From contig CM022665.1 of the NCBI GenBank assembly GCA_012295275.1, positions 12,772,001-12,836,000 on the forward strand: a stretch of DNA of 64,000 bases, read 5' to 3'. A program made the translations under genes and the position numbers. Source of the stretch: Chrysomallon squamiferum. Lineage: Eukaryota > Animalia > Mollusca. The notes beneath the pieces were generated by a model that was not told where the DNA came from, searched no databases, and saw only the letters and a program-made list of their open reading frames with translations. The stretch's first letter is position 1, and every line of letters starts with the position of its first letter. Of the stretch, positions 1-61,215 are shown one piece after another.

Positions 1-55
1 TACAGTCTTGCTCAATAAATCTCAGAATTAAAGTAAATATGAAGAAGTCTGTGCA

Positions 56-122
56 TTATGTTGCTACATTCATCTGTGATAGCATATAAATTAAAGCAAT
101 CACAAGGCAAATATAACATCAA
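56..122 (-). ncRNA. pre-miRNA, miR-2/K-box seed family; predicted 3p UAUCACAGAUGAAUGUAGCAAC (81->60)
   Basis: Plus-strand TGTGATAGC (75-83) pairs with GCAATCACA (96-104); lower stem ATGTT/AACAT; seed AUCACAG. Confidence 0.65.
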
Positions 123-180
123 AATACATGTAATACTATTAATTTCTCTAAAAAAAATCATATATCTTCTTGTACATTTT

Positions 181-261
181 TGTTGTGCTTTCCCTAGTAT
201 CAGAAAGTGCTAGGTATAAAATCATTTCCAAGCACAAAGTGATGCCAGAGAAAGTAGAACA
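181..261 (-). ncRNA. pre-miRNA, UAGCACUU family; predicted 3p UAGCACUUUCUGAUACUAGGGA (212->191)
   Basis: Arm TGCTTTCCCTAGTATCAGAAAGTGCT pairs with AGCACAAAGTGATGCCAGAGAAAGTA. Confidence 0.7.
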
Positions 262-313
262 TTTGTTAAGCTGAAATATATAATTGTAATAACTATATTC
301 AAGATGTAAGGAA

Positions 314-389
314 GGTTGCTTACCCTAGCATCAGTAAGTGCTAAATATAATTTAGTTTCAGCAAAAACGGATACCAGAGAAAGAAAACT
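314..389 (-). ncRNA. pre-miRNA, UAGCACUU family; predicted 3p UAGCACUUACUGAUGCUAGGGU (343->322)
   Basis: Paralogue of the 181-261 hairpin with a weaker stem. Confidence 0.6.
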
Positions 390-580
390 CAGTATCTTTA
401 ATGAATCCTAGACTTGAGATCTGAAAAAAAAAAAAAAAATCCACAAATGTTTCTAAATTAATAAATAAAAATAGGTGATCCTTTCAGTGTAACATTATCA
501 CTTACATTTTGATACTTTGTAAATTATATACCAGTATTCATATTTTAACCAAACATTCTCTGTAAAGTTTGAACAGAAAC

Positions 581-646
581 ATACCCTTACTATATTTCCG
601 TCCAGTTCTTTAACACAGACAGGATGGGTATATAGTAAAGGAATAT
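581..646 (-). ncRNA. mir-184: pre-miRNA, diverged miR-184 paralogue; predicted 3p UGGACGGAAAUAUAGUAAGGGU (604->583)
   Basis: Strong stem CCTTACTATAT-TTCCGTCC / GGATGGG-TATATAGTAAAGG. The mature arm shares 5' UGGACGGA and 3' UAAGGG with canonical miR-184 (UGGACGGAGAACUGAUAAGGG). Confidence 0.8.
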
Positions 647-799
647 AAATGTGTTGGGATGAATCATTTATAACTGTTTCAGGTAATTCTGTACTGCCTA
701 CTTATACCTATTATAATTACTGAAAATATTACTGGGTAATATTCTTGAACTTACCTGAGTGCCTGGATATATATTTGTTTCTATGCTTATTGTACTCCA

Positions 800-866
800 G
801 ACCTTGCATTGATCTGTGATTGCTTGAGATTAACATTATGCAATCACAAGAAAAATACAATGTTAG
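800..866 (-). ncRNA. pre-miRNA, miR-2/K-box seed family; predicted 3p AAUCACAGAUCAAUGCAAGGUC (821->800)
   Basis: TGTGATTGC (815-823) / GCAATCACA (840-848) form a perfect 9 bp stem; CATTG/CAATG lower stem. Confidence 0.65.
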
Positions 867-1101
867 AATTCAAATTAATCAAACTAGTTCAAAAAGTTGC
901 ATATCATGACCAGCACCTCCTTTCTGTTTTTAAATAATCCTTTAAGATTTTAAGCAAATTAATATCTTGTCTCTATGAATGCCTGAACTAGTGGTAAGAC
1001 ACCTCTTCCCTTTCTAAGTAATCAGTTGATTTTCACTGATTTTGCTCATTCATATTTTTATTAGTCTTTAAAATATCTTTATTGAAAAGTCGTTAGAAGG
1101 T

Positions 1102-1181
1102 TTTTCATCTCGTGTCACATATAGCTGTGATAACTTTATATAAATTGTCATCACAAGCTAGATGTGAGCAGAGATGATAAA
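1102..1181 (-). ncRNA. pre-miRNA, miR-2-like; predicted 3p UAUCACAGCUAUAUGUGACACG (1132->1111)
   Basis: Long stem TCATCTC..TCACAT.TAGCTGTGAT / ATCACAAGCTA.ATGTGA..GAGATGA. The first 9 nt (UAUCACAGC) match miR-2/miR-13. Confidence 0.8.
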
Positions 1182-1236
1182 AATAAATTAGAACAAGAAT
1201 GTCAGCTATACAAAAATATGGTTAAATAAAGACATA

Positions 1237-1302
1237 TTTGGTATAGCATTAGAAAGTGCTAGCAGCAAAGATAAGCCAGCACATAACTAATGCTAGGCAA
1301 AA
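1237..1302 (-). ncRNA. pre-miRNA, UAGCACUU family; predicted 3p UAGCACUUUCUAAUGCUAUACC (1261->1240)
   Basis: TAGCATTAG..GTGCT pairs with AGCAC..CTAATGCTA. Confidence 0.7.
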
Positions 1303-1443
1303 GAAGCCATTTAAAATTTCATCATGAATTTTTTGTTAATCATAGCCTTTGTCAGTTGCTTGTGAATGTCTTTATTCTTGGAAGAATATACTATTTTATC
1401 ATAAGGTTTAATCATTCTGAATGTAACAAATATGAATGCCAGA

Positions 1444-1513
1444 TATCAGGTATTGCAGGTTTCTGTGATAGCTATTAACATCTGCAGTCACAAGAAAGAT
1501 ACAATGGCTGATA
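1444..1513 (-). ncRNA. pre-miRNA, miR-2/K-box seed family; predicted 3p UAUCACAGAAACCUGCAAUACC (1470->1449)
   Basis: TATCAG.TATTG..TTTCTGTGA pairs with TCACAAGAAA..CAATG.CTGATA. Confidence 0.7.
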
Positions 1514-1738
1514 AATGAAATTTTTCATTAATAGTAAGATCCATCGTGTATTTAGGATATACAAGTACCTCTTCATAATACTATCAATATTGTATTTGGT
1601 AAGAACATTTTTAGTTTATTTAGGATAAAGAAGTCCCTACGATAATATTATTTGCATTCTCTTTATTAAGAATTTTCATAGACTACTAGTCCCTACCAAA
1701 ATGATATCAGTAAGTTGATAAATCTGATGAAGACTATA

Positions 1739-1811
1739 ACCCAGTACCCCAGCATCTGAAAGTGCTAGTATCCTAATATAACAAGCACAAACAGATACTG
1801 TGGAACAGAGT
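1739..1811 (-). ncRNA. pre-miRNA, UAGCACUU family; predicted 3p UAGCACUUUCAGAUGCUGGGGU (1767->1746)
   Basis: CCAGCATCTG..GTGCT pairs with AGCAC..CAGATACTGTGG. Confidence 0.7.
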
Positions 1812-1952
1812 AATAATTGTGATACCAGTTCCCTTGATTATAGATCTCAAATTCTATTACACTATTTTACAGTGTCTTTGTCTTTATTTGTCTTTGTGGG
1901 TGATATACTGTTTAGTATTAATATCTAGCATACAAATATAGAGTAGTGGTAA

Positions 1953-2028
1953 TTCTTCTCATTCCCAGGATACCACTGTGATACTAACTATATGTGCAGT
2001 ATTACAAGTAGTATCTTAGGTACAAGAA
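1953..2028 (-). ncRNA. pre-miRNA, miR-2/K-box seed family; predicted 3p UAUCACAGUGGUAUCCUGGGAA (1983->1962)
   Basis: CCAGGATACCACTGTGATACT pairs with AGTATTACAAGTAGTATCTTAGG. Confidence 0.75.
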
Positions 2029-2109
2029 AAATCAGTTCTACAGTATATAATAAATTGGAGTATATGAAATAAAATGTTAAAATTTTATATTATTAGTATG
2101 TGGGAGTAG

Positions 2110-2197
2110 TTTCTTTGGCCAGCCCCAGGATTAAACTGTGATTGTTTGTTAGTATATTGACATTCACAAGTAGAATCACAGGACAAGATGAAGAAAT
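2110..2197 (-). ncRNA. pre-miRNA, miR-2/K-box seed family; predicted 3p AAUCACAGUUUAAUCCUGGGGC (2143->2122)
   Basis: CCAGGATTAAACTGTGATTGT pairs with ACATTCACAAGTAGAATCACAGG; basal TTTCTT/AAGAAA; close paralogue of 1953-2028. Confidence 0.7.
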
Positions 2198-2895
2198 ATT
2201 AACAAACTTTTATATAGATTTAACATATATATATATTGCAGTCAGAATAATAAATTAATATTTACTACTACATGAATGATACCAAAATGTGAAAAAAAAA
2301 AAAAATAGAATAGAATAGAAAAAAAAAAAAAAATAATAATAATAATAATAGTAACTGTCAGATATATAAATTAGAAATTTAATAAATCACTGTCACAAAT
2401 GAATTTCTAAAAAGCTGTATAACCAGAAAAGCTAATTTGTGTAAAACTCAAAATCACTACCTTCACTGTGGCTTGTCAAGCTTCAACTAAAAACTATTTC
2501 CAAAACTTCTACAAGTTACTCTAAGGTAAAGCTAATGATGACACCAGTCTCCCAATAAACAAAAACACCCAACCACAGAGCTCTTCAATAAGCAAATGAG
2601 AAATACCTCTTCTTTTGCCAATACCCTATTTATGAGAGGTGTTAAGTGGGTCTAGTGGGTGACTGGGTGGCTGGGGAAGAATCCCAGATGCCAGGAAATA
2701 GTGAAAAAAGCTTTGATGTTTATTGACTTGGATAATATCCTTGTGGGTTTTGAATTTTGTATTGTTCAGAAATTGGTTCATAGTGTTCTGATAATAAAAT
2801 TAATTTAGATTATGATCTAACATAATAGTGCTAAATTGAAAATGAAAATGGTTTTAAACATTTTTCATAATGTACCTAAATAACTGAAAGTTATA

Positions 2896-2930
<35 letters not shown>

Positions 2931-3989
2931 AGTATTTTCAGAATAAATATATTCTTTATAACTTTATAAAAATTTTAATTTATATCAAATACTAACTAAT
3001 TTTGCAGTACAAGAATAATACAAATATAAAAACTTTTTAACTTACAAAACAGGAAAATCTTGTGTATCCATCTACCAAGTTCTTCTTTCAGCTCCAGAAT
3101 GAAGTCTGTATTCTGTTTAACTTTGTCAGAGATATATATACCCTCTCACAAGAATCAAAAATATCTACTCAGAATCATTTTTATCAAAAGTAACTCTTCT
3201 GAAGCAACTTTCCACTCAATGTCAACTCCATCTCCTTGGACTGTTTCTCAAAAGATGCTTTCTCTTCTTGTGAACTTTCTGCTTTCAATTTTTAGTTGAC
3301 TCTGTAGTAACAGCTCCTCTTTCTCCAACTTGTTCTTCTCAGCTTGGATGTCCTATCAGTTCTACTCCTCAGTTGTGTCTTGCTGCCTTCTTATTTGCTG
3401 AGGTTTTTTTTGTTTAAGGATTTGTTGACAAACTTACCAATTAACTGTAACAGCACTAGTTGTTTAGACAATAGCATCCCACAGAGTGGACTCTCTAAGG
3501 TGTAAGGAGGTTTTACTTTTGTTTGTTTGGATTAGGATTAAGAAGAAAAAAAATAATATTGGATTAGAGGAGATATTCTGAGTAGGGAATTTTTTGGTAT
3601 ATGGATGAATTGGAGATTTAAAAACAAAAAACTAAATTTTCTTAATATCATCTTTGTTTTTAGATGTAAAATTAATTAAAAATGGAATAAAAATGAAGTA
3701 TTTATAAATAATAGTTTTTGACATTAATATATATATATTCAAAATATTAAACTGTTTTGAAGATAAAAAATAACAATTACCATAATTATTTTAATTTTTA
3801 TTATTCACAAATAAATTCTTTTCACACTGTTTCAGTTGTGCTGTTAAAAAGATTTATTCTCAGTTATATTTTTAAAATGAACAATAGGTAAATAATATTT
3901 TATTGTAAATTAATTTTTTATATATATATTTTTTAATAAACACATTTAAAAATATAAAATTTTGAACTAAGTTAATTAATTGCCCAAAT

Positions 3990-6900
3990 ATTTGATTGTT
4001 TATTGTATATTGTTAATTATTGTAAAACAATAGTGTTTATCATTGTATGTCACACTTGGTGTCAGATTAGCAGTTAATCCAAATTAATCCACACTTCTGC
4101 TGATCATCCTACACTGTACTGTGCAAAGAAGCCATCTTAAAACAGCTATAATTAACAGTTTGATATTCACACATACTGTCAGCAAATTCTATCTACAGTT
4201 TAAGAAGGAAAAAAGAATTATCTTAAAGTAATAAAAGAAATTTTATTTTACATTTGAAATTTGTTTTTTAAAAATATAATTATCTAGAAATTTAATGCTG
4301 TTGATGACATTATCGAATACATTTTTATTAAATTTGTTTATTTCTAAACTTTATACTGTTTTAATATATTTTGTAACTAGCCTTTAAATTATTTTTTTTA
4401 ATAATAATACAAAGTTTAATTTGTTTTAGCTGCAAATAAATAATACATTATTAATTTTTTTTACATATATTTGTGTGTATGTGTGTGCATGCATGTATGT
4501 GTGTGCATGCATCTATGTTTGTGAATGTGTGTGAATGTGAGTAACTTAATGAGTGAAATTTGATAATATAATATATCATCTTATATGCATTCAAACATTT
4601 CATTATATTTGTTATATAGTTTTTTCTTTTCAGTTGGGTGTAATACTAATATTTATTTTTATGTATTTATTTGAGAAAAAAAATTTAAGAAACAAATATT
4701 CATATAAATTAATTTCCAAGGATGTCAAGCACGTTTTCATTATTTTTGAAATTAAAACAACTACATCAACACATTTTTAAAAAATATTTTCTTTCTCCAG
4801 TTACTGAATACTTCATAAACTGAAAGTAATAAGATAACAGAAGTTTAAATTTGTTATTTAATACTGCTTTTACTAGCTGTCTGGGATAGCTGCCATATTG
4901 GTTTTCTGTCAGCAATGTTGTCTGTCAGAAGATTCTTATAAACACAAACACCTTCAGAATGTTTAGTAAACAAACATTTGACATTAACAAGGATGATATA
5001 TATTTCAAAACAACACCTTTATTAATTTATTGGGTAAATGTTTAATTATTTTTGTGTTTCTTATGTGATATATGAATTTTACTCATTTTATTTATTATTA
5101 TTATCATTGAAATTATTGTTCTTTTTCATCTTCATCTTCATAACCATCATCATCATCATCATCTTCTTCTTCTTATTATTATTATTATTATTGTTTAAAA
5201 ATTTTATAATGCGAAATAATCATTTTAATATATTTTGTTGCATTTTATTTATGTTTTGATAAAATTATTTTCTGAAAAATCTTACAATAATAAAAAAGTA
5301 AATGAACTGAATTAAAGAAATAACTTGTTTTAAAAAAAATTTCAACTGAAAATTGTTATTCTTGTAGTTCAGAAAATATTTACACATTAATTTATTTTAG
5401 AATTTCTATATATAAATATAAAACTGAATGAAAGAAAGTATTAAAATAATATTTGATTTTTTTCTCTGTTAATTTAATAAAATAAAAAGATATTTCAAAT
5501 ATTTTACTGATTTGGAAAATAAAAATAGTTATAATTTAGTTTTATTAATTTAAACAAATTTCATTACTTCACATTTTATGTTTAATATATATATTTGTAA
5601 ATAATATTTCTGAAATGTGTTAAAGATGCATTTTTATTCCTGTCTTATTAAAATAAAAAATAGTGTTTCATATTTAAATTGAAAAATAGTGTAAAAAATT
5701 ATATATTTAATTATTTATTTATTTTTTTTCTTTCTTTCTTTCTTTCTTTCTTTTAAAGATGTTTTCAGTTTGACATATATTACAAATATAAGATATACAA
5801 TATAACAAAACTAAATAAATTTGTCAGTTAATTGATTGTTTATTTGTTTACTGTTAATTATTGTAAAACAATAGTATTTATCACTGAATGCCACACTTGG
5901 TGTCAGATTAGCACTAATCCAATTAATCCACACTTCTGCTAATCATACCACACTGTTCTGTGCAAGGAAGCCATCTTAAAACAACTATAATTAACATACA
6001 TTTGATATTCATACATACTCAGGGTAAAAAAAATTGTTCAGTTTATGAAGAAAAGAAATAAAAAATAAAATAAAATTAGTTAAAGACAAAAATAAATCCA
6101 TGAAATTAATTAATGCAGTACCTAAAAAACAAAAACAAAAAAAACACAGAAAAACAAAAACATTAATGCCATAAGGTAATAATTAATTAACAGTTATATA
6201 AATATATAAAACTGCAACAACAACAAAATACCAAATTTCAATTTTAAAATTATTTGCAGTTTTTATGAAATTTTATATCATTATTAATATTATTTTGTAA
6301 AATTATTTTTTTCAAAATTTTAAAGTTTAAAATGTTATGTATTTCTTTTGTAATTTTGTTAATAAAAACAATAATTAAAACTATTGTAACAAATATTTAC
6401 TATATTAAAACTAATTTAGTAATATTTTATGACCTGGTTAATATATGTGTGTTTAAATGTATGAATGTGTTTATTGTGTGGCTTAACAACTTTAAAAACA
6501 ATTTTTTTTTTTTAAAGAATTATATTTGATTTATTTATTTGAAATGTTAAAAATAAAAATTTAGTTGGTTGCTTCCAATTTTAAAAATAATTTTTTTTTC
6601 ATAAAAAATATATTAAAAATGTTTTCAACCCTTTAAATTCAAAAATATATTAAAATACTTTCTTCAGATTTCCCTTTAATTAAGAAGTTCCTAAATGGAA
6701 ATACTTCATTAAAATTAGAAATGTAATATTTGCATTTATTTTTCAATTAATAATACTTCTATTAGCTGTCTGGAACACCAGCCATTTTAGACTTATGTCA
6801 TTAGTCAGAGTCAGCCATATTGTCTCTCTGAAGATTCTTATGAAAACAAACCCTTTCATAGCAAAACAGATTAGCAGAAATATTTTAGATTAGCAAAGAT

Positions 6901-7810
6901 AAATAAAACCTGTGAGTATTTGTGTTTTAGGATAACTGTATTAATTTGTTTGGATAAATCTGTTTTGTTTTATTTTCATGCAGTTGGTGGATTTTATCAT
7001 TTTATTAAAGTGTAATTACTTTATATCTCTCTCTCTCTTTTCCTGTCTTTCTCTTTCTGTGTATTTTTTAAAAGCATATATTTATAATGCAAGTAAAAAA
7101 AATTATACGTCCAAGTTACAATTTCAGGATAGGTTTGTTTTTCTTTTGTTTTAAATAATTATATTCCAAAATACTTGATCAATAAGTGATTTATTTGGAT
7201 AATTATCATTAATTACATACAAAACAGCATGATATATTCTAATATTTTACACTTGGTGTCATATTTAAGTTAATGAATTTATAAGATTAGAAACCCTGTT
7301 GTGAAGACATACAGTCCTTTTACAATTAAGTCACATTCAATTTCAGTTTGAAAACAAAATTAACTAATTTTAAATAGTGTCAGTATTATAAGATGATACA
7401 AATTTTCAAAGCAGTTTTATTCTTATTATTTTAAATAATATATGAATTTAAAAAATATATATATATATATTAAATAATAAAATAGTTTAATTTTGTATAG
7501 TTATATGAGTATCACTGAATATTATTGGGGTTTTTCAGTTTATATATTGCTTTCTTTTAGTTGTTTTTTTTAGTTTAGAAACATTTAATTATTAATATAA
7601 AGGCAACAATTTAAAAAAATTATTTATTTATTTATTCTTCAAATTATTATAATTAATTACTAATATAATGTAATTAAGCTGTGCTATAACAACAAAGGAC
7701 TCCTTGTCAGTGTTTTTTCTAAGCTGTTTGAATTAGCAGCCATTTTGAAGGCTTATGTCACCAGCTTCCAGAGGCCATATTGTCTCATGAAGTAGTTTTC
7801 AAACATAAAT
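3990..7810 (-). promoter_or_regulatory. Duplicated conserved non-coding modules: A at ~3990-4175 and ~5830-6015 (remnant ~7250), B at ~4860-4950, ~6750-6850 and ~7720-7810; candidate promoters/enhancers
   Basis: Near-identical A copies contain CACTTGGTGTCAGATTAGCA and tandem TAATCC. Seven GCCATNTT (YY1-type) motifs at 4131, 4892, 5970, 6781, 6814, 7739 and 7774 all share one orientation. The duplication is seen directly; the function is inferred. Confidence 0.5.
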
Positions 7811-7904
7811 ACTTTGAAAAGGACAAAAGAAAATGTGCAGTGATTTAAACAGAGATGTTGTAAAATAATTAAGAGATGGTGTGAAGTATTTTACTCTGAT
7901 TTGG

Positions 7905-8650
7905 ATTTAAAGTAAAACTCATCCCATTTGGCTCTGGTTAGATAAATATATGAGGTTTATAACAGACATTTTTATTCATCTTTAGATTACTAAATGTGGC
8001 TTTTCATTCCTCTGTTGTTATTTCAAAGCTTCTTTTTAAAGTAAAATTCATCCTATTTGGCTCTGGTTAGACAGATGCACTTATATTTTTAACAGACATT
8101 TTTGGTATTGTTTTTTTAAAGTGTTTTTGTTTTAAAGCTCTCTAAAAATATTTGAAGTTTGAAATAAAAACAGGTCTGGTTGTTCTTGGCTTTGCTTAAA
8201 CAAATGTATTTATGTTTATAGTAGACCTTTTAAATATTATCTTGCATATAGTAAGTATTTTTATTTAAATTCTTTATCAATAATCTTTTGTTTTATTTTT
8301 GTCCTGAAATTAAAATACAATTACTCCATCTTGGCTCTATTTGGATAAATTTATTTGGGTTTATAAATATTTTCTTACTATCTTTTAGAATAAAATAAAA
8401 AACACAATAATTTAATTCCATTTTTTGTTTCTAATTTGAAATTAAAACAGCCTCTTCCTTTTTGGCAACACTTTATTTTAATAATTTTGATATTATCTTT
8501 TGGAGTGCAAAATAAAGTTAGGTGATTCCATGTTTTTGTTTCAAAACTGTAAATAAATACTTTTTGAATTTTATTAGAAATTAAAAGAGAACTAGTCTAT
8601 TTAGCTCATCTTAGATTTCTTAGAGTAATTACTTAACAAACATTTCATTA
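7905..8650. repeat. Degenerate tandem repeat, ~130-140 bp unit
   Basis: The core CATCCYATTTGGCTCTGGTTAGA..TAACAGACATTTTT recurs at ~7920 and ~8049, with decayed copies at ~8185, 8327, 8457 and 8597. Confidence 0.6.
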
Positions 8651-10253
8651 TCAGTTTTGTTCTAAGAACAAATTTTGGTTTTCTCTGAATTTTATTTTTA
8701 AAAATTTTTACAAAATGTTTCACTGAAATTTTATATTACTATTTTTTTCTTCTATTTTTAAAGAAATTTTAATTAGTTTATGTAAATAAATCATCTTGTG
8801 AAAGACAATGAATTTTGTTGTTTCTTATTTTTCATTTTGAAATTCTTTAATGTTTTTTTTTTCGTCAAAGTATAAATATTTTTTTTTATTAGTGTTATTT
8901 TTATTACCAGAACTAATGAAAAACACATTTAAGTCTAAATTGATTGCTATGGTTAGATAAATCTTTTCATAGTTGGATCAGAATGTTTAAGATAAAAAAG
9001 AAATGAAATATGGTATAAAACAATTTTTTTAGAAAACGTAAAATATATAAAATAAATAAAAAGATAACAGTAATCTGAATAATAATAATAATAATAATAA
9101 TAATTATTATTATTATTACAAAAAAAAAAAAAAAAAAAAAAAAAATACACTAATATGAAAAAACAAAATAAATAAAATATATATAAATAATATGGACAAT
9201 CTCCCATAAACCCTCAATAACTTTTCCTGCAGGGGAAAAAAAATAAAAATAATAATAAAAAAAAAGAATCATAAAAACCAAATCTTTTATACAATTACAA
9301 GTAATGACAATATCATTTAACACATACTACCATATGTGACAGTATATTGTGTATTCCACATTAAACATGTAGAGTTTTTTGTACTATAGGCCTATCAGGA
9401 AACAGCAGGAGTTTGCTACTGTTTTGACAATATCCACTCTTAAGTTCACTGATTTAGTTTCAGGAATTTGTCTTCTGTTTACATCTGACAATATCCACTG
9501 AATGATTTTTCATTTAACTTTGTATTGTTGAATACTAAACTGCTTTTATGGCAATACATATTAAATAATAAATATAAAATATAGTATTATCTTTTTTCCA
9601 AAGTTGGTAAGACAGTTTAGAGTAATTAATAATAATAACAATAATAATAATAATAATAAAAACATCAATAATAATAATTATTATTAAATTTATACCACTT
9701 GAATACATATTTAATGATAACTTATTGCTATTTTTTAATTTGTATTGAATGAACAAAAAATTATTGTTTTAATAACTGTGTTTTTCTCTTTCAGTCTGTC
9801 TTTGTGTATATATATGTGTACGAGTGTGTCTGTGTGTAATATAATGTAAGGATGAAATCTGCAAAAACTTTGTAATTTTGGTTACTCTTACTGACTTGCA
9901 GCAAAGATTTTGATTTTAATCATGCTTTCCCATTGACAGGACAATATTGTATTGCTTTCATCATGCCAGTCATTGAGCACTGGTTTAAATGGGAAATAGT
10001 ACTCTAGGTACACTAAGTGGGATTGAACTTCAAATAAATATTTTGCTATGGCTTTATAATTACTTTTATAATTTTAAAAGTTTATTGTCATCATCATCAT
10101 AATCATCATTATTACTATCATCATTATTACTTTACCTCAATGTAACACAGTTTATTAACTTCAGTATTTTTTTTTTTTTTTTTTTTTACACCTATTGATT
10201 TAGTTGATTAAATTTGGAGAGCAGTTTAAATTTTATGGATATTGTTATTCTAG

Positions 10254-22356
<12,103 letters not shown>

Positions 22357-25300
22357 ATTTCAGAAACATCATCATTTTGTTGTAGGTTGTACAACAGCTT
22401 TCATAATAAGAGAAAGAGACATCTTGGATATGATGAAATAATTTTAAAAATTATTCTGTCAATATAAATGATTTATTACGAAGCATCATACTGATACTTT
22501 GTTTAAAAGATAAAGACAATATCAGAATAATTTAGAATATTCTTTCAAGTTACTTGAATGTAAATAGGCCAATGTCACTTTATAATTTTTAAAATTATAA
22601 CATTTTATTTAAAAATGACTTGAATGAAAAAAAAGAAAGAAATAAAACAAAACATTCAGTATCAAAATTTAAAAACACTAATTTTCAAGAATAAAATAAA
22701 ATTTCTCATTTTGGTCAATACATAATAATCATAGGACTACATTGGAATCCAAGGATAAAACTTATATATTCTGTCCAAATCAAATATCATAAACTGCATT
22801 TATTATTATAATTATTTATTTATTTTATTTTATTTTTAAATGAAACTAAAATATGAAATCTATTGAAAAAAAAAAAAATTCATTCATTAGTAAAGTCAAA
22901 ATTTCCAAGAAGTATCGTCAGATACATAAATTTAAAAGATAAGAATCAAAATTTTAGAGACATAGAGGCAGTAATTTTTGTCATCTTGCTCATAAATATG
23001 TGACAGCAGGCTAATAATTTAATATGATAACTATTAATTTTCATTTTTTTTTTTTTTTACACACAGCAGTGTTATACTGATACATTTTTGTTTTCATTCA
23101 TTAAAATATTTTTGACTAAGTAGTCGGTGATAACCCTGATATTATTATTAATCACATACATATTATTATCTAACAAAATATGAAATCCAAGAACTTTGAT
23201 AGTAAAACTATAGTCATATAATAATGACCGTGTATATCTTTATGATATAAAGCTAGACTGACATGTGGATGTGCTTTAAACAAGCTGTCCAGCAATGCCA
23301 GAAGAAAGAAAAAAAAAAAAACACTTTCCACTTTTGTTGTGGAAACAATAATGCATTTTTATGTGCATAATCTTGGTATTGGATATTCAATTTAATTGTG
23401 TTTTTACAAATGTTTCTACCTTTTTATGTGTGTTTTTATAGTCATGTCTTCAAGGTTTGTGTTAAACAAAATACTCACTGAATTCTTGGTCTTGGAGGTG
23501 CCTTTGATGTTGCATGAGAATGTTAATATTACCATTTTAATCTTAGGTGAAATATCGCTTGTAAAATGAAAAAGAATTTCTGCAACCACATCTATACATC
23601 ATTGAGGATGTATTTGTAAATATTTTTCATTTTAGTAAAAAAAAAAAAAAAAAAGAAGAAATCCCCATTAAATCTGCATGCATTCTAAAATGTATTTTTA
23701 AATTTGAAATGGCTGTTTTACAAACAAATTTGGATTTTTTATTTATGCCTGTAATTATTCTTTAGAATTTATGGCAGCTGAAAAATTTCAATTTATTAAC
23801 TTTTTTGAAAAAACAAAACCAGTATTGTGAATGGATTTGTAGGAAGCTTAAATGTTGTCTGGAAAAAAATCTTCTTATTCAAATTATTAATATTATTAAA
23901 TACGTAATTTTAATATTTCATTTATACTCTTAATTATTACTATGCAGGTGAATTTAATTTATATACCCAATTATTTAAAAATATTTTTATAAGATTTTTG
24001 TTGTCTAAATCATTTTTGCTCATTTTTTATTTTTATTTTTTCCTATGGAAACACAATAACAGATGTTTAAGGTGCTTCATCACAATTAACAAAAATTAAT
24101 TTAACCAAAGACATTTTTATGATTTTCATGCTCATGTCCCAGCTATTAAAAAAAAAAAAAAAAAAAAAAAAATGACGAAAGAAAAAAAAAAAAATAAAAT
24201 AAATAATAAGATCAATTTAATAGTTTACCATACTAATAAATAAAATATTAAACTTTAATTTGGACTCAAAAATAGAAAAAAAACCACCCCAAAACAACTC
24301 TTATGGTGATGTATCATTTTCACTATCACAGACAATTGCAAGACTTATATTGGCCTTCTATTTGCTCATGTTTTCATATGCTCCTATATTTTAAACTTAA
24401 CCAGTGTAATTTACATGTAATTTCATCAGTTATTTCACTTAAAATTTAAACTTAAATGTTAATAACTTTGCCATTCATTATACCTATAATGTTCTTCAAA
24501 TTGAAGTTTATTATTAAAACTGATGAACTTGAAATAAGCAAAAGAAATAAATGAAAAAGAATAAAAGATTGTTTGATGTTCTAGCAGAAAAGAAACTAAT
24601 TAATGTATCCTCAGATACTTTGTTCAGATATAAATTAATCAAAGCATTAAATATTAAAAACCAAAAGTAAATGAAATAAAGCAACTGATATTTTTAACAT
24701 TATTAGAAAATTAAGTTAATTTTTTATATATCTGTATTTTATTATTAAATAAACTGATAAAAAGTATTTTCTGCCACTTGCCAAAAGAATTTCATCTTAT
24801 TGATAATCATTGTACATTGTTTTGTATTTACTTTTACCAATTTTAATTCTTTACATTTTTTCATTTTTTTTTATTTCCTGTTATTTATGCAATTTTATGT
24901 CTGTATCATTTAAAAATAAATATTGTTTTGTGAAAGCTTTCACTTTGATTTCTTCTGTATTTTATATAAATATATTAGTATCTTGAAATATTTTTATTAT
25001 TGTTGTTTGTTTTTTTTGTTCACTTTTGTTTTCACTATTTTACTAAGATGGCTTCATTCAAAGATGATGTTGTCATCCTAACAAAGATAATTCAACTGTG
25101 GAGCACTAAAACTTGAAGCTTTCTGAACAGATTTTGCGACAGGATTAGCATTTATTTAAAAAAAATTAAAAATTAAGATCACATGGTAAACAAAAATAAA
25201 ATAATCTACACTGCTGTATCATCTTTACAATAAGTGTAGATCTAAGAACATACTTTGAATACACATTATTACAGTAAATATAGATAAAAAAGACACATTA

Positions 25301-25550: not shown

Positions 25551-28500
25551 GATCAGTAACATTCAATATTTCATCAACTTACTACTGCATACAGATTAAA
25601 CACAAAACATAATAATAATTAAACAAAAAAACAAGAAACAATAGAGATACAGTTTCATATCTTTATTTGACCACCATAAATATTTACTATTACATAAGCT
25701 TTAGTAATACTGTCTTCCAGTTACAATATTTTAACTTTTTTTAATCCCTGTATCATTTGAAATAGGAAGCTTATTAGTTATCACAAACCTTCAACAATAA
25801 TATAATTGTGCAAAAATATATATATATTCATATTAAAACCATTTTGAGGGGATCTTGGTTCATTTATTAATCTCTGATTAAAACTATGATTTTGTAATTT
25901 TTTATTTTTTTTTTATTATTATTTTTTTTTTACCAATGTTCAGATTGTGATAGAATCTGAAGATAAAATACAAACATAAAAAATTATGTCTGCAATAAAA
26001 TTTATGTACAAGTTTTTAAAATTTTATTTTTGTTTTATATGCTGAGTATATGATTGTAACAACTGCATGATTTAAAATAAATATTGTAACTAAAACAAAT
26101 GTCCACCAGTTATTTTATTATTATCTTTTTTTCTTTGAGTGATGTGTAGCTTTATGGTTAACAATGGTTGTTTTCCATTATATTCCAGAATGGGAAATTG
26201 GTATTTATATTTTCTTATTTTAAAAAACCATAGTATTTAAAATTTTTAAAATAAAAAAAAAAAAAAAAAAAATGTTTTTTGATTGAAGAATTTCCAAACA
26301 TTTTAAAATAATCAAATAATTTGAAAAAAAAAAAAAAAAAAAAATTAAAAAAAAGAAGGAAAAAGGAAAACAACAAAGATGAGTGAAAAGTTAAATTTAA
26401 AAAAAAAAAAAAAAATGCCTTTTTTTCTGGAATTAAAAACAGATTAATTTTTCAGTAATTTCAGTAACATTATTCCAATATACATAACATGATTAAAAAC
26501 AGAACTATTTACACAACAATTAATGATGTGCTACAGGCATATCACAGTTGTTTGGCAAGAAAAAAAACATACATTAACACCTGAAAAACCAAAAAAACAA
26601 ACACCAAAACAAACATGCATTAATTAATAAATAATTTACTTACCTATGGCAGATGTTGAGAACTATTATGAGAGGGTCCAAGATAATTTCCTTAAAAAAC
26701 GTTTGTTAACAAGTTTTGGTAGCAGATAGTATAATCTGTTTTATTTTATTTTATTTTTTAAATGTAAAAGTGAATAAAATATTAGTAAAATTTTAAAAAT
26801 CAGCACAATGGATTAATTTTTTCCCCTTTATATTCTGGACACTTTACAGCCCAGGTTTATGGTCTATATTGATGTAATCAATAATAAATAACTGTATGAT
26901 TGTTAGGTCATGGCTGATAGTGACTTAATTCCATTATAACATTTAATTAAATAACATAAAAATGTCAAGGATTTATATTTTTTACTTATTTTTTTTGGTT
27001 AAATTGTATCAAAAATACTATTTAAAAAATCAAAAAATCAAAATAAAACTAACCTAATAATGCCAGAGGTTTATTTAATTATTGTTATTGTTTAAATGAC
27101 TGAATTAAGAAAAATCTTTCTGGTTCAGTTTTGCTAAAATTTCTGAACATTCTTTTGTTTTTGAAAATACAATAACAATCACAAATATTTAAGTATTATT
27201 CATTTTTTACTTGTAAACAATTATTAAGTTAATTATAAATAACAAAAAACAAAAATGATGTAAAATGTATTATCAACAGACCTGTCTGATAAGGAAAAAT
27301 ATAGAAAGCAAATATCAATAATATAATTAGAAAATATATAATTTATAAACACAAGAAAACATTAAAATAATAAAGGGGAAAATTCTTATAATGACAATAT
27401 CTGGTTTGGAAAAAACAACATAAATCAAAATTATATAATAATCATTATGTACAAGCATTAGTAACCTAGTAAAGTGCAGCTAAGTTGAAACCTTAAAAAG
27501 CTTTTATCCCTGATGTTTTGTTTCATTACTTTTTGATGTGCCTGTCTTTGTCTGCAGCAAGCACAGATCAAATTAATATTAATTAGGTTCAACATGAGTA
27601 CAGGTTACTATTAGTAACAAAGTTTTAATAAAACATTGCACTAAAACAAAGAAACAAAAAACACATCAACAAAAATAATTACTTTGGTATGCAAATGACC
27701 AAAAATCATTTTAAGTGTAGTTTTATTTATATTACATCCCATAGGGTCTTACTCCACGAAGCATTTGCAATTATCATAAAAACTTGATAATTGGTATTTT
27801 TATATATATATATAAAATCTCCTATTCTACATAATCTTAAGGATACAAACATATTTTTAACTTTACAATATTCTTCAAATTATAGTTTTTTAACACCATC
27901 AGAAATGTTCTGAATACAGATTTATTCTTCTAGAAAGTTAACACTACAAATATTCTACAAAGTTTAAAAGCAGTCCAAGACACTTGGCATATTGTAAAAT
28001 CAAATATAAATATTTAAACATCTGCCTGGAATATATCAAATATAACAAAAAGGGAGAAAAAGAAAAGAAAAATGTAGAAACTGTAAGGGTTAAAGTCAGT
28101 GATGATCAAATGTGATGTGAAATCCGTGGATCAAAACAGTAACACAGTCATAAAGTTTGATCAAACTTACTAATGTAAAATATATCTAAGAATTTACTTA
28201 GGGTACATACTGCTAGATACTGGCTGTATACAAAAAGAACAATTATTATTTTTTAATAATTTTTGCTGAAAAACTAAAGTACTGTAAATATGTGTTCAAA
28301 ACCTTCCACTAATCTAACAGAAGAATGAGATATATAAAATGGAAGTGAGAAGATAATTCAAATGTTACTTGCATAAATTTTAAATATTTAAAAGTATGAT
28401 GAAGCCGCTAATGTTTAAATGCATAGAGAAATATTTTAAATTTCTGTATTATAAGAAATTAAAAATGGATAAAAGACTAATAAAATGTATTTAAGTAGCC

Positions 28501-49100: not shown

Positions 49101-50279
49101 GCAACAATAAAATCTTTGATGTAAAATATAAATTAAAATACAGTATACTATAATTAGTTTAAAACAAACAAAAATAAAATAAATAATGGTTAAATTTGTT
49201 TTTCATTTAAAGGGGAAACTGAAATTAAGTTAAGATTGAATTAAAAAAACAACAAGAAAACCCCACCTTTTCCTGCACTTACTAGTTAAACTAATACTCA
49301 TTTATAAACAAGAACAACAATTAAGATTCTATAAAAACACTTGCAGAATATTTAAATTAATTATAAGTATTAATAAATATGTCTACATAATAATAACTAA
49401 GCATTATAATGTGAAATATAGATATATAAATATTAATACTAAGAAGAAAAGAAAATTATGTATTGGAGAAATTATAACACATCTTGATTTTCAGATTTTA
49501 TTCATCACTTGCTAAATATAGTGACTGGTAATAAACATTCTGCACAACTTGCAGACAGTAATTACTGAACAGTTACATTCATCTTTATGTTTCACTTCGT
49601 CTAAGTGTAGATTCTTGACATTTAACATTCTGCACAACTTGCAGACAGTAATTACTGAACAGTTACATTCATCTTTATGTTTCACTTCGTCTAAGTGTAG
49701 ATTCTTGACATTTAACATTATACTAATAACACAATAATGTGATGTCATTAAGACAATACCTGAAGAATATAACAAAGTCTGATGCTCCAGCAAAACACTG
49801 GTAAAAATCTGTAGCACATTATCTGTTCCTAGTTTGCGAAATAATTCCCAAAGTGAGAAGTCAAACAGTGGAAGTTCACTTGTACCTGCAAATGTAAAAC
49901 AATTTTTAAACTCAACATTCGCCTTTTATCAACTGGCAAATATGTGGGTTAAAACAAAATTCCTGAGAAATAAAATATTTCTTATTCCATTCTAAGATGT
50001 ACAGAAGCTATAGAAAGTATTATTTTATTCCATAGTTTTAGTTATTTCACATTTATTGACTTATCAAACCAGTTTCTAATTATATGTGCATATAGCCAAT
50101 TTGTGAAAGGGATAACTGTGAAATTTCATTACAGTCAGCATATGGAACATAGTTAAGTATAGATTCATTATCATTAACAAAATACCTTAGAATTTTAGAT
50201 TTCTTCATGAATAATATAATTTTAAACATACATACATGAGAGAGAGAGAGAGAATGAAAATGAGAATAAGAGTGAGAAT

Positions 50280-58602: not shown

Positions 58603-61215
<2,613 letters not shown>

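Follow-up and report, generated by a model that had tools for sequence, protein, structure and literature searches.

Compact, seed-redundant, and fast-diverging clusters of microRNAs (miRNAs), such as miR-309~6 of Drosophila and miR-430 of zebrafish, clear maternal mRNA, and for fish, frogs, and flies such clearance by miRNAs is well established. For spiral-cleaving embryos, the means by which maternal mRNA is removed is, to our knowledge, an open question. Among spiralians, an embryo-expressed tandem cluster on scaffold 488 of Capitella teleta has been likened to miR-430 in PMC8915122, which also states the clearance role of miR-430. In the oyster Crassostrea gigas, "cluster 20" of Xu et al. 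2014 (PMC4138081) comprises m0314, m0315, m0317, and a candidate m0316, all within 970 bp of scaffold370 (642749-643718), antisense in an intron of CGI_10025557, and scored as oyster-specific. Here we describe a related locus in the snail Chrysomallon squamiferum, within a window of 64,000 nucleotides (nt), which is the whole stretch analyzed (GenBank assembly GCA_012295275.1, contig CM022665.1, positions 12,772,001 to 12,836,000). It consists of 11 pre-miRNA-sized hairpins that occupy 60-2182 of the minus strand, opposite in strand to the kielin/chordin-like gene KCP. Six have the K-box seed AUCACAG, four have UAGCACUU, and one has a divergent miR-184 arm. We conclude that the cluster is genuine and that it is a variant of a molluscan embryonic locus already known in part.

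Both strands were read and folded, with z-scores taken against 100 dinucleotide shuffles per hairpin. Numbering runs 5' to 3' on the minus strand, and the 3' arm (3p) is given after each predicted pre-miRNA. The K-box hairpins are number 1, the 5'-most (2122..2182; arm 2143-2122), 2 (1962..2020; 1983-1962), 4 (1449..1506; 1470-1449), 6 (1111..1170; 1132-1111), 7 (800..862; 821-800), and 11 (60..118; 81-60). The UAGCACUU hairpins are number 3 (1746..1803; 1767-1746), 5 (1240..1297; 1261-1240), 9 (322..378; 343-322), and 10 (191..249; 212-191), and the miR-184-like one is number 8 (583..640; 604-583). The first figure of each arm is its start on the minus strand, and 11 of 11 agree with the starts given in an earlier note on this DNA; its claim of at least 11 hairpins in 2.2 kb, each with the arm on the 3' side, was likewise confirmed for all 11 by folding.

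Minimum free energies (MFE) range from -20.6 to -34.4 kcal/mol and z-scores from -2.7 to -9.2, the lowest belonging to hairpin 6, and the minus strand is more stable than the plus strand in 9 of the 11. With duplexes drawn with 2-nt overhangs, the predicted pre-miRNAs are 57-63 nt long with loops of 13-18 nt. Mature arms are paired at 15-20 of 22 bases, being 16-20 in 10 hairpins and 15 in hairpin 5, so that the set has the ordinary loops and the mature/star pairing of at least 16 nt that mark canonical miRNAs. The lower stem has 6-12 pairs in 10 of 11, and hairpin 5 (arm start 1261), the weakest, has none in its MFE fold; it is possibly decaying, or dependent on a neighbor for processing. A basal UG is present in 1 of 11 hairpins (hairpin 2, at -14/-13), and CNNC occurs 16-17 nt downstream in 5 of 11, both being counts without controls. 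We rejected a plus-strand (sense) reading, since it would leave the conserved 7-mers outside the seed position.

Repetition of this kind is not expected by chance. On the minus strand of 1-2300, ATCACAG occurs 6 times and AGCACTT 4 times, against a mean of 0.18 for each in 1000 shuffles, with maxima of 2 and 3. As a post hoc correction, we asked for any 7-mer with at least 3 G/C, and found none at 6 copies in 1000 shuffles, and one at 4 or more copies in 75 of the 1000. A scan blind to the seeds places 9 of the 42 minus-strand hairpins of the window in 1-2300 (binomial P 1.5e-5), although it did not pick up the hairpins at 1261 and 2143. Covariance models of the K-box and UAGCACUU families find no extra member in the 64 kb, only the known 6 and 4 plus opposite-strand echoes. 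The count is thus exactly 11 within the window; because hairpin 11 borders the window edge, further members may follow beyond position 1. A degenerate 12th hairpin near 1706-1723 (blast E 2) was considered and dropped, as the family covariance models do not recover it. These results support the reading of the hairpins as a genuine polycistronic cluster of miRNA type, opposite in strand to KCP.

The pattern of change within the hairpins is that of selection on a seed. Positions 2-8 are identical in 15 of 15 K-box pairs and in 6 of 6 UAGCACUU pairs. The first 8 nt had been described as fixed in each family, which holds for positions 2-8 and fails at K-box position 1 (4 U, 2 A). Positions 9-22 had been described as divergent, which is strongly so in the K-box set, at 40% mean identity, and more weakly in the UAGCACUU set, at 65%. 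Loops and flanks are 41-54% identical with gaps allowed, and the spacers between hairpins resemble each other only in short chance-level matches. Double-sided stem changes are found in 19 of 30 K-box pairs (0 of 500 shuffles as high) and in 8 of 22 UAGCACUU pairs (5 of 500 as high), but this covariation only leans in favor, because the structures come from the same sequences that were tested. Conservation of both seed and stem, as in a canonical miRNA gene, is seen among the paralogues.

The UAGCACUU family is where the link to oyster lies. The first 8 nt of the four snail arms are those of m0316 and m0317, and m0314 matches at positions 2-8. Compared with m0317-3p, hairpin 9 is identical at 20 of 22 positions and hairpins 3 and 10 at 19 of 22; these 2, 3, and 3 mismatches in three of the four arms compare with no match in 100 shuffles, and the fourth arm, of hairpin 5, agrees at 15 of 22 by eye. 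Homology in the 3p arm therefore extends beyond the seed. The oyster sequences m0314, m0315, and m0317 passed their authors' miRNA criteria, and m0316 failed the overhang test (PMC4138081). Hairpin order differs between snail and oyster. The cluster had been called lineage-specific, which has to be given up, as the family is common to a snail and a bivalve and the oyster copies have been in print since 2014. Hairpin 10 (175-262) also has lower-stem flanks that, by eye, are similar to those of m0316, which suggests that conservation may go beyond the mature arm. A second oyster array, at scaffold392:613542-617624, has five hairpins with an AGCACUA seed and blastula-to-D-larva timing, and was rejected by the authors for low reads (PMC4138081); it is likely an offshoot of the UAGCACUU/cluster-20 family.

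Established families account for less of the locus. At curated cut-offs, Rfam has no match to any of the 11 hairpins or elsewhere in the window. Eight matches are found below cut-off, to E 5, among them mir-184 to hairpin 8 (34.8 bits, E 3.8e-5, cut-off 54.1), a weak mir-29 match to hairpin 10 (25.8 bits, E 0.017, cut-off 46.7), and mir-308 to hairpins 7 and 11 (E 0.25-0.29; for hairpin 7, a weak 21.1 bits against a cut-off of 60); mir-2 and mir-71 are absent from these eight. All six K-box hairpins have the AUCACAG 3p seed of MIR-2, with neither a conserved 3p arm nor a match to the precursor model, and within the window none is linked to mir-71. Since, as Marco et al. 2012 (PMC3384581) stress, membership of miR-2 does not follow from a shared K-box seed, the six are filed as K-box seed-mates, not as canonical miR-2. 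The canonical miR-71/miR-2 cluster shares with the snail cluster the 3p K-box seed and the tandem copies, whereas the snail cluster has no miR-71, and its 3' arm parts are 40% alike where miR-2 arms are highly conserved (PMC3384581). In oyster, the mir-2 copies that PMC4138081 mentions in its text are found in PPP4R1, as the six-copy canonical cluster, and in SMC4, and the mir-184 arrays are on other scaffolds. Taken with the Rfam result, this supports the view that the snail locus is distinct from the miR-71/miR-2 cluster.

The arm of hairpin 8 has the GGACGGA seed and agrees by eye at 16 of 22 positions with published miR-184 (PMC7488030, PMC12261956). The description of it as recognizably miR-184 is right for the seed, while the copy is divergent, falls below the Rfam cut-off, and is not the canonical locus; it is likely a divergent miR-184 paralogue. 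The relation of the UAGCACUU arms to MIR-29 is looser. They have in common the 3p start UAGCAC and the weak Rfam match of hairpin 10, one of the four, but that score is far below cut-off, and the seed is AGCACUU in 4 of 4 rather than AGCACCA, so that positions 7-8 are UU instead of CA and predicted targets differ. Descent of the UAGCACUU seed from MIR-29 is possible, and is offered as a lead only. We had presumed a family label, MIR-12096, for these arms, which was not confirmed. The label is absent from Supplementary Table 1 of MirGeneDB 3.0 (PMC11701709), and literature searches for it gave either nothing or unrelated papers. A text search for the UAGCACUU 8-mer gave nothing on molluscs by title among the best 40 of 53 matches. 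A degenerate UAGCACUU pattern had 5 matches in a metagenome scan, none of them on a 3' hairpin arm or with a second seed nearby, and these were rejected as chance.

The host gene is read from the plus strand. Pfam places the C-terminal half of KCP, with VWC repeats, VWD, C8, and TIL, at 10254..22356, with exons colinear with residues 865-1709 of the 1720-aa KCP of Haliotis rubra. The first visible exon (10254-10424) begins in the middle of a VWC, without Met or signal peptide, behind an AG acceptor at 10252-10253, and tblastn with KCP proteins gives 0 of 6 with a match below 10200, which would put about 860 KCP residues upstream of the window. Since the first exon starts mid-domain and the upstream residues are missing, the cluster likely lies antisense within a large KCP intron of at least 10 kb (1..10253 on the plus strand), whose 5' end is outside the window. 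As to the proposal that the cluster is antisense and intronic inside KCP, the opposite strand stands and the intronic placement is an extrapolation toward an upstream exon outside the window. Alternatively, it is possible that the KCP gene is split at this point. A partial Solemya KCP model (P0134) starts at the exon equivalent to 10254, a hint of a conserved large intron, or of a break, at that place in a bivalve. Given the close match of the UAGCACUU hairpins to oyster miRNAs, the locus is likely an old molluscan cluster.

Timing comes from the published oyster tables. Reads of m0317-3p number 1 in egg, 102 in blastula, 1317 and 535 in trochophores, and 300 in D-larva, after which none is counted in any of 5 later stages or 8 adult organs, female gonad among them (PMC4138081). 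The same course is followed by m0314-3p and m0316-3p, and m0315-3p leaves only traces later. The normalized level of m0314-3p and m0316-3p peaks at blastula, before trochophore organs form. The oyster homologues thus show the zygotic onset and transient expression that are features of a clearance cluster, and their reads from blastula to D-larva support the embryonic expression that had been proposed. CGI_10025557 is expressed in all 16 samples listed, unlike its antisense miRNAs, which fits separate transcription. Genes of miRNA biogenesis are high in early oyster embryos (PMC4793324).

We propose, by analogy with this timing, that the snail cluster would be switched on at genome activation and would repress and clear maternal and early transcripts until the early larva, a reading to which we give an even chance. 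RNA polymerase II (Pol II) would produce a minus-strand transcript independent of KCP from a candidate start near 2600 or 2185, and all 11 hairpins would be cut from that one transcript. Drosha (Microprocessor) and Dicer would release the 3p guides, with neighbors possibly assisting the weak hairpin 5. The snail timing would be the same as in oyster, on at embryonic genome activation and lasting through the early larva, and the two host genes would be orthologous. The guides would act through the seed matches AAGUGCU, CUGUGAU, and UCCGUCC in 3' untranslated regions (UTRs); four and six copies would raise the dose per seed, in addition to one miR-184 seed, with the sequence outside the seed free to drift. 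A fuller version, which we put forward tentatively and regard as doubtful when taken whole, is that this is a molluscan cluster of miR-430/miR-309-like type, which has kept its antisense place in one and the same KCP intron from a time before snails and bivalves separated, combining AGCACUU (derived from MIR-29), K-box, and miR-184 seeds with turnover between lineages, and clearing maternal mRNA in spiral-cleaving embryos.

Besides the circularity of the covariation test, several points weigh against the proposed explanation. The oyster 3p sum at blastula is about 4,200 RPM (reads per million; 741, 2330, 287, and about 817 by scaling reads), which amounts to roughly 0.4% of the miRNA reads at that stage on the assumption, implied by the egg figures, that RPM refers to miRNA reads. 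That is far below the dominance of miR-430 in zebrafish. The oyster homologues also last through trochophore and D-larva, later than pure clearance requires, and K-box and miR-184 seeds are absent from all 4 annotated oyster hairpins, which limits the timing evidence to 4 of the 11 snail hairpins. The identity of CGI_10025557 as KCP was not found in the main texts searched; a separate search gave no C. gigas KCP among the best 120 of 378 matches. In Biomphalaria glabrata, the intronic trio miR-2c/miR-2c.1/miR-2f is found in adult haemolymph at 8-53 RPM (PMC12261956). Four snail sequencing runs match part of the region, three of them RNA and none a library of small RNA. Over 460-2210, which spans 8 of the 11 hairpins, the three RNA runs, all from one study, yield five contigs at depth 2-5, unstranded and without joints, and such shallow contigs may be KCP pre-mRNA or DNA. 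The fourth run has no contig over 460-2210. Of 10 contig ends, 4 lie within 7 nt of predicted Drosha cuts (P 0.03, and 0.06-0.10 at 3 other thresholds, all chosen post hoc), which we do not count as evidence, and a possible minus-strand intron near 753-669 was discarded, as an RNA contig runs through it unspliced.

The persistence into the larva raises a different use for a zygotic embryo-larval cluster, whose main job might be trochophore patterning or cell survival, for example by way of K-box sites in Notch-target and pro-apoptotic mRNAs, and not bulk clearance. Drosophila K-box miRNAs do target pro-apoptotic genes (PMC3384581). The raw oyster reads peak at trochophore and remain high in D-larvae, and modest abundance is what expression in a subset of cells would give. 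Patterning agrees poorly with the normalized maximum of m0314-3p and m0316-3p at blastula, ahead of trochophore organs, and the seed-redundant tandem design resembles that of known clearance clusters, so we think it rather unlikely as the main role. The Biomphalaria trio, whose three K-box-type miRNAs occupy about 1 kb of an intron, may correspond to the snail cluster. With it comes the idea that in gastropods the cluster works at a low level in adult or somatic tissue (haemocyte, neural, or other), and that embryonic restriction is peculiar to bivalves and, there, to the UAGCACUU members. Pieces of the region in snail RNA libraries would fit, but those contigs have the low depth and single source described above, the Biomphalaria levels are low and the host gene unnamed, and no UAGCACUU miRNA appears in the accessible adult Biomphalaria tables (PMC12261956, PMC7328434); we judge this improbable.

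A germline role, also suggested earlier, fares worse. Compact, fast-evolving clusters are often gonadal, and a maternal cluster loaded into oocytes would explain the few oyster egg reads (1-6 per homologue, or 14-84 RPM), but the female gonad has 0-1 reads (PMC4138081) and the RPM rises 20- to 50-fold from egg to blastula. Male gonad is not among the oyster samples listed. By analogy with oyster, zygotic expression in the early embryo is favored and a germline role disfavored, and oocyte loading seems highly improbable. That the hairpins are unexpressed or decayed, or are a repeat or transposon relic that folds by chance, would account for the empty Rfam result at curated cut-off and for the degraded look of hairpin 5; it is scarcely credible given fixed seeds, compensated stems, spacers unlike one another beyond chance-level matches, and 19-20 of 22 identity to sequenced oyster miRNAs.

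Two candidate promoters lie upstream of the cluster on the minus strand. Candidate A (2590..2700) is a G+C-richer patch with CCACCC at 2670, a TATA-like CATAAATA at 2634, and an initiator-like (Inr-like) TCATTT 35 nt on; these motif labels are our assumption and carry no chance control. Candidate B (2207..2216) is TATAAAAG, which precedes hairpin 1 by some 30 nt, though TATA-like words are common in AT-rich DNA. Farther out, at about 3050-3430 on the minus strand, there is a G+C-richer stretch resembling a broken coiled-coil coding sequence, interrupted by stops and shifts of frame and bordered by GTAAGT words, which may be either a pseudogene fragment or an exon of a non-coding host transcript. 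The presumed KCP intron also holds three dispersed repeat families whose main copies are 75-92% alike, located at 4003-4157 and 5844-5996; at 4849-4956, 6738-6858, and about 7690-7830; and at 7906-7947, 8035-8076, and 8309-8350. Two of the families carry AAGATGGC/AAAATGGC and TGACA words, the former being presumably YY1-like. The repeats at 4-8 kb were considered as H/ACA small nucleolar RNAs of a host transcript and rejected, having no Rfam match and poor consensus folds.

The gene order across the window is KCP at 10254-22356 (plus), DENND5 at 29223-50968 (minus), and a HINT-like gene at 58858-61215 (plus). KCP and DENND5 matches seem to share a contig in Mytilus coruscus and in Solemya velum, which suggests that their linkage may be conserved, and a DENND5 exon is 81% identical to its match in Gigantopelta aegis and 63% to that in Haliotis. 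On the minus strand, the K-box 8-mer CUGUGAUA occurs as a perfect site at 24324-24331 and at 26540-26547, respectively 4.9 and 2.7 kb beyond the final DENND5 coding exon that is visible; both are possibly in the DENND5 3' UTR, and would serve canonical miR-2 too. One DENND5 intron contains a short tandem duplication, at 49525-49737, which shows up as a repeated peptide in the list of open reading frames (ORFs).

As regards novelty, what is already in print is the core of the oyster family, as species-specific and, in the accessible part of that paper, without a clearance hypothesis. Our literature search, with most subscription papers outside it, found no description of this cluster or of its role, and none joining miR-430-type clearance, molluscs, trochophore, and zygotic activation; papers on Chrysomallon and microRNA include none on this cluster by title or start of abstract. 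What the locus adds is that miRNAs published as oyster-specific are common to a gastropod, and that there is now a concrete candidate for clearance, with three defined seeds, testable in oyster, abalone, or limpet. Should curated databases already name the genes, novelty as a catalogue entry would fall, and the functional hypothesis and the conserved antisense arrangement would still be worth testing.

Set beside the described systems, the snail cluster is nearest to oyster cluster 20, with which it shares the AGCACUU 3p seed (3 of 4 oyster hairpins), compactness (about 1 kb in oyster), and probably an antisense-intronic setting. They differ in that oyster has 4 annotated hairpins against 11; none of the 4 is a K-box or miR-184 member, the start of m0315 is of GCACCA type, and the accessible text of PMC4138081 proposes no clearance role. 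The Biomphalaria trio (KE720464:152823-153843), about 1 kb long, is gastropod, intronic as the snail cluster probably is, and likewise composed of divergent K-box-type arms, which are named after Lottia miR-2c and Melibe miR-2f, but its source is adult haemolymph, and host gene and strand are not given in the accessible account (PMC12261956). The Capitella cluster is spiralian, tandem, and embryo-expressed, as the snail cluster is proposed to be, the likeness being one of description. With miR-309~6 and miR-430, the snail cluster has in common a compact, seed-redundant, fast-diverging polycistron, K-box copies as in miR-6, and an oyster homologue that is zygotic and transient. AGCACUU is the reverse complement of the miR-430 seed, which we take as coincidence. 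Because the abundance typical of a clearance cluster is lacking in the oyster proxy, the snail cluster is not filed as a member of the miR-430/miR-309~6 type; its seeds differ from theirs and it is probably antisense intronic.

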